A stretch of DNA of 64,000 nt, taken from positions 41,540,001-41,604,000 of the forward strand of contig OZ024746.1 in assembly GCA_964016885.1 (NCBI GenBank), in the 5' to 3' direction. The stretch is from Eledone cirrhosa. Lineage: Eukaryota. Positions 17,118-48,020 of this stretch are shown here, one piece after another. Under the pieces are notes generated by a model that saw only the letters and a program-made list of their open reading frames with translations, did no database searches and was not told the DNA's origin. Within the stretch, counting starts at the first letter, position 1, and each line of letters begins with the position of its first letter. Both the position numbers and the translations under genes were made by a program.

Positions 17118-17605
17118 CTTTTTTTGTTTAATATAAGGAATTGTTTATTCATTATTTGTTTAATATTTTATATATATATATATATATATATATATATATA
17201 TATATATATATATATATATATATATATGTTATATGTGTATGTGTGTGAATATATATATATATATATATATAAATATTTTGTATCTCCATTTCATATATAT
17301 ATATATGTTACATGTGTATGTATATATATATATATATATATATATATATAAATATCATGTGTATGTATGTATGTATATATATATATGTGTATATATATAT
17401 ATATATATATATATATATATATATATATATATATATATATATATATATATATATACAGTATTTTCCGTTGTGTTGTAATATAAATATTACACACAGTAGA
17501 TTATCAGCTCACGTAGAGTTTGCTCGACGGTTCCAGTTGTAGTTCCAAAAGTAATCCGGAGAAAAATAGAAAGATTTGAATGGATACAGTTTAGTTGAAA
17601 GGAAT

Positions 17606-17725
17606 TTATTGACACGTGTTTCTATAACAGTTACATAACCTAAAACAGCTGCTATCTACAAACTTTTAGTTATGCAGACATTCAATATTTCAATGTTATT
17701 ATTTACTGTCATTTCATCAGAATAA
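17606..17725 (-). ncRNA. Type I hammerhead, family D
   Basis: Reverse complement of the motif at 19084-19203. Confidence 0.88.
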
Positions 17726-19083
17726 TATTACTGAGGACCTATTTAGTTTTTATAGAGAATATTAGGAGGGAGGGGTGAAGTTGTTAGAAGAATAGTTGAA
17801 GGAGTGGTTTTTCGATAGCAGTGAGAATTCTTGGTGGCAGTGAGTAATTAGATTCCCATCTGTTGTTTTGACATTTTTTATAGAATATATTATTGGTTAT
17901 TTTTCTAAATCTATAGAAGGATTAGAGATAGTAAAGATATGCGTGGTTGGTTTTGTGTTTGCACTTAATTAACATTCAGACTTAAATTTTTCTTTCAAGT
18001 GTACGTATCCTTTCACCCACGCATTCATACACACATATATTTGCACACCTCTACAAAATACATATACTCACAATTCACATATTCATACTTACATATATAT
18101 ATACACATGCATACACATATATATACACACATGTATTCATGTACATACATACGCGCTCATGTGTATACATTTTCATACTCAACTTATCTTTATATACACA
18201 CGTATAGACATACACATATATACATACATACTCTAGTCCATGTGTACACACATACACATACATACACATCTATATACACATACATACATACACACACACA
18301 CACATATATATATATATATATATACATATATATATATATATATATATATATATATATATATATATATATATATATATATATATATATATATATATATATA
18401 TATATATATATATACAAGCACTTTAATACATGAATACACTTACATCTAACTATACACATCAAACATATATATATATTTACTTATTTATATACATTTTCAC
18501 ATATATATACATACTTATGGACGTTTTTAGACACATTCATTATCGCATATTTGCACCTATTCTCATCAGCATATCTTTCCATTATTAGTGTGGTAATTTA
18601 AGGTTATTAATATATGTTGAGAAGAGATTGTTTTTATATTTTTCTAACTAGATTAAGGTTTATATAGTTGGGGGATGTCCCTCTTTTATGTAATATTCGG
18701 CTTGTAGTGGGAAAAAAGGGTTTTAGTTGTGTGACGGCAGAATAATGTTCGTTCAATTCTGTTATTCAGCAGTTTCTTCTTGTGTGTGATTATGTAATAA
18801 ATCTCAAGATTACACAATTTGCAGAAATTTTGGCTCCTGGAAAAAGCTTTGGGTTTTAGCTAATTTTTCCCATTTTAGGGTAAACTTATGATCGCTATCC
18901 CTGAGCGTCCAAGCTTTTTCTGCTAAAGTTGTTACATTTCTTTGGCTCTGGTGTTTTATTGAGTAAGAATGCCTTCAAGAATTCTCACTGCTATCGAAAA
19001 ACCACTCCTTCAACTATTCTTCTAACAACTTCACCCCTCCCTCCTAATATTCTCTATAAAAACTAAATAGGTCCTCAGTAATA

Positions 19084-19203
19084 TTATTCTGATGAAATGA
19101 CAGTAAATAATAACATTGAAATATTGAATGTCTGCATAACTAAAAGTTTGTAGATAGCAGCTGTTTTAGGTTATGTAACTGTTATAGAAACACGTGTCAA
19201 TAA
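19084..19203 (+). ncRNA. Type I hammerhead, family D (long stem II)
   Basis: ttatt-CTGATGA(19089)-a-atgacagt...actgttat-a-GAAA(19187)-cacgtg-TC-aataa; inner helix tgcataactaaaa/ttttaggttatgta. Confidence 0.88.
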
Positions 19204-20007
19204 ATTCCTTTCAACTAAACTGTATCCATTCAAATCTTTCTATATATATATATATATATATATATATATATATATATATATATATATATATGTGTATGTG
19301 TATATACAAACCTTAGAAAAGATAATTTGTAGATAAAAATGCATAATATAATATACCTACTATAACAACATGGCCTGTAATTCAGTGGAATTTACATTTA
19401 ACAAACACACAGCTATTAACTATAAACTACTCAAAATAATTCCATGGTCAATAGATGTGAGTTACAAACAACATATACACATACATCCGAACTACAACAC
19501 AAAAACGCTTGAGTGAAAATCACCTATCCAACTCTATCACGTGCTTTGCATTACACCTCACATAACATATACCTACATTGTCACCACATGTCTCTCTAAC
19601 ATATTGCATGCTATCTTAAACATTTATAACACTTATACATGCTCTAACATCCCACACGAAATATGTTTATTTCAACTGTATTACAACTCTTTCCTCATAC
19701 ATGCCTTATTGACTATATTGACTCCTGCATTGTACACCCATAACATTAACAGCTCTCCAATGTTAAGATATCTTATATCTTATGTCTATCCTATCCCACA
19801 TTTTTCCTTGCCTATAACTTTTTTGCCTATACATTTTGCTTATACCTCTTACACTTTCAACCAGTGCTGTCTGTAATTGTGTTCTCTCAAGCATAACATC
19901 TCTTTAACTCCTGACTCTCCACATGATGTCTATGACACTAACAACACTTATGTATCCTAAATGTTCTGAATGACTAGGACTTTAGTCACATGTTTTGACA
20001 TTCCCTA

Positions 20008-20054
20008 TGCTCTGATGATTTCAGACTTCCCTCTGGAAGAAACAATTGTCAGCA
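20008..20054 (+). ncRNA. Canonical minimal type I hammerhead followed by AATAAA
   Basis: tgct-CTGATGA-tttcaga-cttccc-tctggaa-GAAA-caattg-TC-agca-aataaa, about 40 nt before a (TA)n run. Confidence 0.9.
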
Positions 20055-21436
20055 AATAAATGTTCTAAACTAAAATTTGATCGTTTTAACACTTTGTATA
20101 TATATATATATATACAAATATATATCAATCATAACATTTCTTGTGTGGTTGTATGTGTATATATATATATATATACATACAACCACACAAGAAATGTTAT
20201 GATTGATATTGCTGAAAATGATAGAAACTCTTCAAAACATGCTGATATTAAGTTTCTATTTACAGAGAAATTTCATTTAGACAAAACTCATTTTATTGAT
20301 GTGACTTATCCTGTCTGAAAGTAAATTAAAGATTTTATCATCTCTTGAAATGACCTTCAGTTTTTGGCTCTTGGTGTGTATGAAGATTGATTCATCTCAT
20401 TATTCAATACACGCAAATTACTTATTGTCTATTATTATTTTATTGAGCTATCAGTAATTGCTTAGTCTTTTATAAGAAAAAGCAATATTTTGAACAGTGT
20501 CAATGAAATTATGACTGTCACATAATTAATATATTCGTCAGCCTGGTGTATTAGTGACAATAATTTCATATATTCATTAATGACCACTTTCCCCATTCTT
20601 GTGATTGACTCAAATTTATATTACAACTATACTCAATATAGATCAATGTTTGCATATTGTTTTTAGGGGAGGGAGAGTAGTTATTGAAGTTTGCCTCAAT
20701 ATATTGAATTGACAGCTGTGTATATCCAGTTTATTCTTGCATGTTGTAAGTGGTGACTAAAAGGGTTGCCAGGAAAAGCATCTGGCTGTAAAACATTGAC
20801 TAAAAAAAGTATCCTATGTCATGGGGCCCACATGTAAATGACTTGTTTAGTGTTGTTGTCTATGGAATTGACTGCAATATTGTACTTATTTTACTGACCA
20901 TAAAGGGATGAAGGGAAAATAAATCACAGTAAATTATTCATAAATTTTTTCTTATATCTAAAACTCTTTGTAAAACTACTCAGGTAAGCTTCGGTAAATT
21001 ATGATATGCCAATTGAACATAACAAAGCAACATATCCTCCTTACCTGTGGACAAAGACTTTCCTTGAAGCATATAAAATTAATTAAGTTTTTGAAATTAT
21101 CTCCCCTTGTTTGGAAATTATGAAAATATTGCTACTTGTTTTTTTTCTCCAAATGAGAGGGATAATTAAAATAATTCTTTTCTGTTTTTTTTTTGGGGGG
21201 GGGGGGGGAATACGGTGGATGGTGAGGGTTTATGTTATTCAGTACATTACTGCTCATTTTATTTAATGAGTAAGATTTGAACTTCAAACACTCAGTGCTT
21301 TTTTGTTCAGTACATTCATCAGTTTGTCACTGTTATCGATGTATATCAATACTGATTTGACTAACTTACTATCGGATATATTACAGCTGTCAGGCTTATG
21401 AATTACTGGAATTTTTTTTAACACACTGACGCATAT

Positions 21437-46427: not shown

Positions 46428-46455
46428 CATGAATGACAGCAGGGAAAATAATGAT

Positions 46456-46943
46456 ACAGTGTTACTCAAAAGAATTTGAACATTCCCTGATAGCATCAAT
46501 GCTTCTTAGCAACATTGGCGGGAGTGTCCCTGTAACGCAAGATGTATACAAAACTATATAAGTAGAATAACTATATATATATATGGTGAGTAATATTACA
46601 ATTATATATATATATATATATAAGATGTATACAAAATTATATAAGTAGAATAACTATATATATATATGGTGAGTAATATTACAATTATATATATATATAT
46701 ATATAAGATGTATACAAAATTATATAAGTAGAATAACTATATATATATATGGTGAGTAATATTACAATTATATATATATATATATATATATATATAATTG
46801 TAATATTACTCACCATATATATATATAGTTATTCTACTTATATAATTTTGTATACATCTTGCGTTACAGGGACACTCCCGCCAATGTTGCTAAGAAGCAT
46901 TGATGCTATCAGGGAATGTTCAAATTCTTTTGAGTAACACTGT
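46456..46943. repeat. ~150-bp inverted duplication centred on (TA)n, with its inner ~65 bp amplified to three tandem copies on the left
   Basis: 46456-46605 versus 46794-46943; aagatgtatacaaaa...tacaatt occurs three times, separated by TA runs. Confidence 0.92.
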
Positions 46944-47284
46944 GAGTTCAATTCTCGGACCAGGTGATGTGTTGTTTCCTTGAGCAAGACACTTTATTTC
47001 ACATTGCTCCAATTTACTCAGCTGTAGAAATGAGATGATAGGGACTGAGGTCCCTATCATTCCACTGAAAAGTGGTCATGGAGGTGCCACAGCAAAAAAG
47101 CACCCACCACTCACTGTAAATGAGGTTGGTGTTAGGAAGGGCATCCAGCTGTAGAAATCAAGCCAATATCAGTTCCCGTATGAGCAAGACAAGGTCAGCT
47201 AACCAGACACTGCCCACAACAGGACAGCCCGTCTAACCCATGCTAGCGTGGAAGATAGGACGTAAAACGGTGATGATGATGATA
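46941..47284 (+). mobile_element. tRNA-SINE with RTE tail, head truncated at the B box
   Basis: tgtgagttcaattctc...ttgagcaagacacttt...gacgtaaaacggtgatgatgat. Confidence 0.88.
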
Positions 47285-47481
47285 TTTATACTTTGATGAT
47301 ATTTATACTTTGCCAATAAAAACACATGCACCTGTTGTTTTCACTTCAATTTATTATAAATTTGTGGTTGGTTAGTTCGATAACTGGAACATGACCCTCG
47401 CAAAGTATAACAATATCTGTTTCAGCACACGTTTTCAGATAAGAAATCTTGCAAAAAAAATTCAAAAAACGAATATATATA

Positions 47482-47738
47482 TCACCATCATCATCATCAT
47501 CATTTTACGTCCGCTTTTCCCTGCTTGCACTGAGTCTGGCTTGATTTCTACAGCTGGATGCCCTTCCTAACACCAACCTCATTTACAGTGAGTGCTGGGT
47601 GCTTTTTTGCCGTGGCACCTCCACGACCACTTTGCAGTGGAATGATAGGGACCTCAGTCCCTATCATCTCATTTCTACAGCTGAGTAAACTGGAGCAATG
47701 TGAAATAAAGTGTCTTGCTCAAGGAAACAACACATCAT
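47482..47738 (-). mobile_element. Same SINE family, head missing
   Basis: Near-identical to 7665-7870. Confidence 0.88.
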
Positions 47739-47749
47739 ATATATATATT

Positions 47750-48020
47750 TATCACATAAGAAATGGAGAATCAGTGTTGTGACGAATAAAATTTATTAGA
47801 CATTACAATCGTTTCTCTGGTGACCAGCTCAAGGCACGATCAATGTAATGATTGAACCTGACTCTGAAATCGCAAGGTCCTCAGATACGTCTCGATTCTA
47901 CGAAGCAGAGTTTTGATAATTACATCGATCGTGCCTCGAGTGGTTGCCAGAGAAATGATTGTAATATGTCTAATAAATTTTATTCGTCGCAACACTGATT
48001 CTCCGTTTCTTATGTGATAT
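47750..48020. mobile_element. Fold-back of an HHR-bearing 3' end (~100-bp arms)
   Basis: 47750-47850 is inverted at 47918-48020. Confidence 0.85.
47798..47892 (-). ncRNA. Type I hammerhead (3' half duplicated on the + strand at about 47950)
   Basis: Minus strand: agacgtat-CTGAGGA...GAAA-cgattg-TA-at(at)gtct-aataaa; stem II pairing not resolved by eye. Confidence 0.7.

Follow-up and report, generated by a model that had tools for sequence, protein, structure and literature searches.

Inverted inserts of Penelope-like elements in a (TA)n-rich stretch of the Eledone cirrhosa genome combine two fixed 3′ ends

Why should repeat after repeat in one stretch of DNA consist of two opposed pieces of the same element? 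The stretch in question (the window) comprises 64,000 nucleotides from Eledone cirrhosa, C6:41540001-41604000 of a 3.0-Gb genome; it is ∼32% G+C and dense in (TA)n. A first reading, made from the letters alone (the sequence-only reading), named six such inserts and two likely ones, and each of the eight is indeed made of two opposed arms of one element, with the sense 3′ ends facing outward into TA-rich flanks. Judged from their sequence, all eight are Penelope-like elements (PLEs) in (TA)n, in four families with Hydra-clade motifs, one Neptune-like family and one short family without known partner. Of particular interest are the outer ends: elements of every family end at two places only, a short end (S) and a downstream tail end (T), and two-armed inserts combine one S with one T, a near-absolute rule across the six families.

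The families are labelled A (insert at 17456), B (30803 and 265), C (42497), D (44829 and 47295), E (47750) and F (58487). Arm orientation was set by the open reading frames (ORFs) of full-length relatives in A–E, and in F by the hammerhead-like core only. Element coordinates are counted relative to S, negative upstream and positive downstream. The arms, together with a single-armed copy for comparison and a control long interspersed nuclear element (LINE), are as follows.

265–405, arms on opposite strands: old family-B-like mini insert, ∼80% identity, with decayed tail; S arm 265–316 (minus), tail-bearing arm 323–405 (plus)
17456–18974, minus: family A (Hydra-motif PLE) left arm, 1.5 kb, −1361 to +113; end of the GIY-YIG region, 3′ untranslated region (UTR) with microsatellite, pseudo-long terminal repeat (pLTR) and 113-nt tail; outer end T
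18976–19243, plus: family A right arm, −264 to S; pLTR with CUGAUGA..GAAA core at −152 to −119; outer end S
30805–31525, minus: family B left arm, +80 to −6, then −410 to −1012; 80-nt tail, internal deletion of 404 nt; outer end T
31532–32128, plus: family B right arm, −598 to S; outer end S
34653–36190, plus: (GAT)n-tailed LINE in (TA)n, without inverted arm, with RVT_1 and PHD; control family
38772–40364, minus: family C single-armed copy (T end), comparison case
42497–42532, minus: family C left arm, +56 to +92, a terminal 36-nt piece of the 89-nt tail; outer end T
42531–44812, plus: family C right arm, −2260 to S; remnants of reverse transcriptase (RT) and GIY-YIG, 3′ UTR and pLTR; outer end S
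44829–45251, minus: family D (Neptune-like PLE) left arm; hammerhead core; two (TA)n tracts and a 116-bp duplication break up the arm; outer end S
45253–45393, plus: family D right arm; 59-nt tail; outer end T
47295–47363, minus: older family D left arm, −24 to −78; S-side outer end damaged, abutted by a LINE tail
47388–47473, plus: older family D right arm; outer end T
47750–47913, minus: family E (short PLE derivative) left arm, −163 to S; outer end S
47909–48095, plus: family E right arm; 74-nt tail; outer end T
58432–58638, no strand assigned: family F short palindrome centred on the CUGAUGA core; ∼60-nt tail on the left arm only

Some limits drawn in the sequence-only reading needed amendment. 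The overlap of the family A arms, put at 268 bp, is 266 aligned nt with 0 differences. In the family B insert (30803–32128) the left arm was said to resume where the right arm stops; this holds for its outer 86 nt only, for beyond the 404-nt deletion it extends to 31525, and 189 nt of it also occur in the right arm, at 2.6% divergence. Two inserts had been described with one arm's tail omitted: that of family E (47750–48020) has its true end at 48095 and that of family F (58487–58638) its true start at ∼58432, both being two-armed as claimed. The 36-nt tail-end arm and 55-nt gap reported for family C (42497–44800) stand, as does the two-armed structure at 44829–45393, with its junction now placed at 45251/45253. 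The window inserts fold at −80 to −517 kcal/mol (46498-like long arms aside).

The distance from S to T is 113 nt in family A, 80 in B, 89 in C, 59 in D, 74 in E and ∼60 in F; an optional tail bounded by two fixed ends, a PLE trait, is thus present in A–F. Genome-wide, exact-pattern ends with a TATATA flank number 1427 S and 1111 T in family A and 680 S and 498 T in family E, against 0 for control patterns; the family A counts show that the two-ended architecture is not a matter of chance. Read-through copies of families A–E carry TAT directly after S and directly after T, at 10 of the 10 sites seen, which bears out the earlier expectation of TA microhomology at the priming ends and means that a (TA)n target presents the same ATA-3′ primer on both strands. 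From 300 nt upstream to 100 nt downstream there are 9–18 TAT motifs in families A–D and just two are used, which tells against opportunistic priming on AU-rich RNA. In family F (L264–L282) (CA)n often precedes (TA)n after T ends and not after S ends, possibly through slippage or as part of the RNA.

The pairing of ends was counted in a curated sample: 10 kb around the best matches of A (33 loci), B (38) and C (38), and 3-kb loci for D, E and F, with the window copies added. Two-armed inserts with intact outer ends are S+T in 125 of 126 cases (A 19/19, B 23/23, C 21/22, D 13/13, E 30/30, F 19/19; in D five segmental duplicates were counted once and the seeds were T-ended, and the F count is of distinct loci). 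Such inserts occupy 19 of 34 loci in A, 23 of 39 in B and 22 of 39 in C. Left out were single-armed copies (14 in A), inverted pieces lacking an intact outer end (A: L170; B: L200, L201, L237; C: L246, L248, L256, L260, L261), inserts cut by the locus edge (eight D loci and L249 of family C) and T-like arms of very small length adjoining S ends, three in number (L187, L210, L252).

Curated seeds require long arms, and as an unselected test the exact-pattern end lists were paired, among the matches listed (first 100 places). For family A, 100 S and 84 T ends in C1:1-185.7 Mb gave 45 outward pairs, every one of them S+T (p=2e-14); six of the 45 are also in the curated set. Among the matches listed for family E, 21 of 23 outward pairs were S+T; on inspection one exception proved to be two adjacent S+T inserts and the other an S+T insert with a TA slip.

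The two arms of an insert appear to be the product of one event, and probably of one molecule. They match each other more closely than they match other copies in 15 of 16 inserts in A, 15 of 21 in B and 9 of 11 in C, the arms differing by about 2% in B and C. Subfamily variants are carried on both arms in 13/13 comparisons in A, 59/87 in B and 41/51 in C, a concordance that 0 of 1000 permutations reach. The sequence-only reading had both target strands priming on one element RNA in a single event, and these shared source variants suggest that they do. In three full-length family D copies the inverted arms are 0.8–1.2 kb long and the upstream pLTR begins only 150–206 nt before S: the inverted arms contain sequence found only at the downstream end, from which both arms must therefore derive.

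The inner ends were compiled by hand for 45 family A pairs, with arm ends traced by BLAST chains. The T arm runs past S in 38 pairs and ends within the tail in seven; the S arm reaches further upstream in 18 and the T arm in 16. Arm lengths are uncorrelated overall (rho 0.22, p=0.15). Inner ends lie within 12 nt of each other in eight pairs, where 0.67 are expected; 11 pairs agree to within 45 nt (2.0 expected), as do 7 of 24 when long arms alone are counted (1.1 expected). Coincident inner ends occur at −1100, −1283, −1471 and −2057 among other places, and offsets cluster at 0, not at the tail length. At junctions without inserted letters at least 2 nt are shared in 20 of 32 (20% expected), and near-flush junctions show a 1–6 nt overlap in 30 of 36, microhomology as in LINE-1 twin priming.

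Mini inserts with two arms, again S+T, are also numerous, their arms ending near −56 (B: L187:9329-9517, L206, L230, L231, L235 and L240) or −70 (C: L207, L222 and L253; oriented coordinates). These stops coincide with the hammerhead region, where the RNA may end or copying may be blocked.

The assignment to PLEs draws on relatives in the same genome. A single ORF with RT and endonuclease motifs is present in A (L183), C (L262), D (L184), B (L302 and others) and E (L283/L338); in A, C, D and E the motifs were read by eye, and they match the published list. Of the Hydra-clade motifs (Craig et al. 2021, PMC8557442), RWK/RWR was found by eye in A, B, C and E, DKT in A, B and C, the CxCx5C linker in A, C and E, and CxxC plus CxH in A and C; CCHH is absent and the targets are (TA)n, family B being judged from N-terminal motifs only. 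The L184 ORF of family D, read in the same way, has a Neptune-type Cx2-5CxxC linker and the endonuclease CCHH. Neither the D protein nor the C pieces tested were assigned to a family by Pfam, and the clade labels (Hydra for A, B, C and E; Neptune for D) are motif readings. Family F is a short palindrome family for which no ORF partner was sought. PLE-type partial tandems of the pLTR are present, as read-through copies in A (L183), C (L262) and D (L184–186) and as 3.54-kb arrays in B. A hammerhead-like core lies just upstream of the ends, found by pattern in A, C (one mismatch) and D and by eye only in B, E and F; an Rfam scan of the window, dominated by sub-threshold microRNA matches to TA repeats, gave no hammerhead among the matches listed (150 of 196).

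Head-to-tail family B arrays with a 3.53–3.54-kb period, at C1:91476616-91487267 and C1:437200343-437210960, are candidate source loci. The window holds other PLE endonuclease remnants at 12206–12754 and 37086–37583, the latter matching Pfam GIY-YIG. At the 5′ junctions of L248 and L254 family C arms are fused directly to family D ORF sequence, by nested insertion or an inter-family template switch.

Families E and F deserve separate mention. Both are PLE-derived or PLE-like, and a first look gave 3275 candidates for E and 3227 for F. In being short, abundant, palindromic and TA-flanked they are like Stowaway-like miniature inverted-repeat transposable elements (MITEs) and non-LTR retrozymes (bioRxiv 10.64898/2026.07.22.740005). 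They differ in their asymmetric ends and variable E junctions, and in not forming head-to-tail arrays. The insert at 47750–48020 was first read as a MITE, an assignment given up on account of its one-sided tail. Rather than symmetric terminal inverted repeats around a fixed interior, a tail is found on exactly one arm in 30/30 E and 19/19 F inserts; the E junctions vary from copy to copy, though a 5′ limit near −164 is one at which one of the arms often stops. Beyond its end the E tail leads into a PLE ORF. Short TA-flanked palindromes of this genome would thus be misfiled as DNA-transposon MITEs.

What process yields one S and one T? We consider it likely that one RNA is primed at S and at T from opposite strands of a nicked (TA)n target and, as part of the same reading, that inversion is caused by the element itself, which has two fixed start sites and uses them as a pair; target symmetry permits the outcome without causing it. 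From the fixed and paired ends, the TAT beyond them, the shared source variants, the overlapping arms and the 1–6 nt junction microhomology, we infer the enzymatic steps as follows. The endonuclease would nick both target strands, and each ATA-3′ end would pair with UAU at S or T. Two RTs would then start on one RNA, with one nicked strand as primer for each. The enzyme working from T would read through S, displacing or following the other cDNA, so that one stretch is copied twice; the PLE RT is not known to have RNase H. Both cDNAs would halt, in many cases where the RNA ends or is blocked for both, and be joined by end-joining, and failure of one cDNA would leave a single-armed S or T copy. 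Narrowly, we also favour a broader view, in which PLE integration is two-ended by design: an RT pair on one RNA, two fixed UAU sites and both nicked strands, with the tail, the inverted pLTR and the thousands of MITE-like hairpins as products of one reaction.

Several points weigh against this account. For families A–F the mechanism is deduced from genomic sequence, and for the anole enzyme the start sites are reported to lack homology to the cut DNA and to be equal on both strands, with no test of pairing in the available part of that paper (PMC11167929). Fourteen of 34 curated family A copies are single-armed, and about half of family A ends are without an exact-pattern partner. The sole T+T insert (L247:5169-8595, oriented) joins an upstream and a downstream T, its left arm starting at the upstream T and then jumping to the stop point of the other cDNA; at L225, flush, non-overlapping arms at an upstream T fit ordinary twin priming. 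Shared variants could partly reflect conversion between arms, coincident inner ends also fit fold-back of a cDNA, and unequal arms with junction microhomology could stem from later deletion of palindrome centres. Folding of the tail regions compared with shuffles revealed no special fold (z −1.6 to +0.4), and nothing there indicates how both sites are held.

Four alternatives were weighed. The arms might be primed on two RNAs of the same source copy, an asymmetric complex forcing one enzyme to S and the other to T. Dual priming was proposed for L1 (PMC2837659), and it would explain the S+T rule and give overlapping arms (38/45) with no need for strand displacement; a few active sources could even yield shared variants. 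Template inner ends that coincide far above chance, at −1100, −1283, −1471 and −2057 among others, are not expected of independent molecules, however, and the 13/13 concordance extends across several A subfamilies, which makes this version unlikely.

Alternatively, a cDNA might fold back to prime on and copy itself, and the endonuclease might resolve the resulting hairpin by cutting one side at S and the other at T. Fold-back of this kind was proposed for rotifer PLEs from junction palindromes (PMC3846280), the PLE tail has been attributed to endonuclease resolution (PMC8557442), and both coincident inner ends and microhomology are predicted. If fold-back were target-primed, the T arm would have to contain the whole S arm, whereas S reaches further upstream in 18 of 45 pairs; loops of up to 3.5 kb would have to form on 1–3 nt of homology, and TAT at both ends fits priming. 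A free hairpin would require an integrase step, which is not known for GIY-YIG. We regard fold-back as quite unlikely.

Third is the explanation offered in the sequence-only reading itself: that (TA)n symmetry lets both ends of a break prime at AU-rich places in the RNA, as in LINE-1 twin priming. TAT at 10/10 sites, the seven of 45 A inserts with non-overlapping arms and the fact that nearly all outer flanks are (TA)n agree with it, though such uniform flanks leave a comparison of inversions inside and outside (TA)n within a family with no contrast. A control is provided by the (GAT)n-tailed LINE with RVT_1 and PHD, presumably RTE-like. Among 36 young, 3′-intact copies in 1.37 Mb (two extending past the reference, their 5′ junctions unseen), 28 have (TA)n downstream and three have an abutting inverted arm, two of these being one duplicated segment. 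In the same tracts, then, the LINE inverts in at most 3/28 copies against 19/34 for family A (Fisher p=0.0004), so symmetry does not suffice. Nor is it necessary: rotifer PLEs have inverted pLTRs outside microsatellites, with 8–10-bp target duplications (PMC3846280). Together with the use of only two fixed, paired sites, and with arms that overlap in 38 of 45 pairs against the geometry of LINE-1 twin priming, these results render the explanation improbable. In its favour, the (GAT)n LINE or its SINE-like (short interspersed nuclear element-like) partner does form outward-facing pairs in (TA)n on rare occasions (L180:4950-5560 and L136:1858-2280).

Very improbable, finally, are two independent insertions in one tract, MITEs or assembly fold-back artefacts: repeated insertion into (TA)n does occur (L173, L322), E and F resemble MITEs at first search, and contigs of four public runs include family A with none bridging the window's A junction, but no (TA)n separates the arms, S+S and T+T would be expected half the time from independent insertions, the arms differ by ∼2% in B and C, and junctions differ widely among E copies, whose tail is one-sided and in L283 leads into a PLE ORF.

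Priming of one RNA at S and T has precedents in its parts. Hydra-clade PLEs likewise insert into (TA)n and form partial tandems and inverted 5′-truncated copies, often with a tail at one end, the tails being 30–40 nt there and 59–113 nt here; the accessible part of that work does not count end pairing, calls the origin of the inverted structure undefined and names the origin of PLE tandem and inverted repeats an open question (PMC8557442). The Anolis Poseidon PLE in vitro (Frangieh et al. 2024, PMC11167929) also starts at two internal sites bounding the tail, nicking and extending both strands, and a dimer is predicted; its start sites lack homology to the cut DNA, while all 10 sites here are UAU, and in the part of that paper available to us the two sites are neither linked to inverted copies nor tested for pairing on one RNA. 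LINE-1 twin or dual priming (Meyer et al. 2010, PMC2837659) shares opposite-strand primers, outward 3′ ends and short inner-junction microhomology. In LINE-1, however, a first primer at the poly(A) end and a variable internal second primer leave non-overlapping arms with an internal deletion, whereas here there is no poly(A) primer, both sites are fixed and internal, the arms overlap, and inversion makes up about half of all events; a target-site duplication would be hidden in (TA)n. Penelope copies of Adineta vaga (Arkhipova et al. 2013, PMC3846280) share inverted pLTRs with a tail on one and are accompanied by PLE small RNAs; their targets are not microsatellites, and they were explained by self-priming.

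Inverted arms, one-sided tails, (TA)n targeting and two start sites are thus each separately in print. A full-text literature search, covering neither subscription journals nor supplements, found no paper that states the S+T pairing rule, describes MITE-mimicking hairpins or ties twin priming to PLE inversions. The near-absolute pairing, with its signs of a single template, connects the two start sites observed in vitro with the structure of genomic copies. A further consequence is a genome seeded with long near-perfect hairpins, candidate double-stranded RNA substrates for ADAR or small-RNA pathways; singleton substitutions in family A show no sense-strand A>G excess (29 A>G, 32 T>C), a weak test of editing before insertion.

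The window contains further palindromes and repeats. An inverted dimer derived from mariner (Mos1-type helix-turn-helix), flanked by (TA)n, lies at 32180–33090 and is a DNA-transposon palindrome unrelated to the PLE rule. A perfect 23-bp × 24 array (45874–46427) adjoins a palindrome at 46456–46943 with three 83-bp units and (TA)n at its centre, where an assembly effect is possible. A 423-bp direct duplication of 100% identity (33336–33758 and 33953–34375) lies between (TA)n tracts. A 46/96-bp tandem array at 49541–50418 matches the 3′ UTR of the (GAT)n LINE, and a 104-bp tandem array occupies 51319–51677. Further short palindromes are found at 8246–8442, 20122–20209 and 1415–1486.

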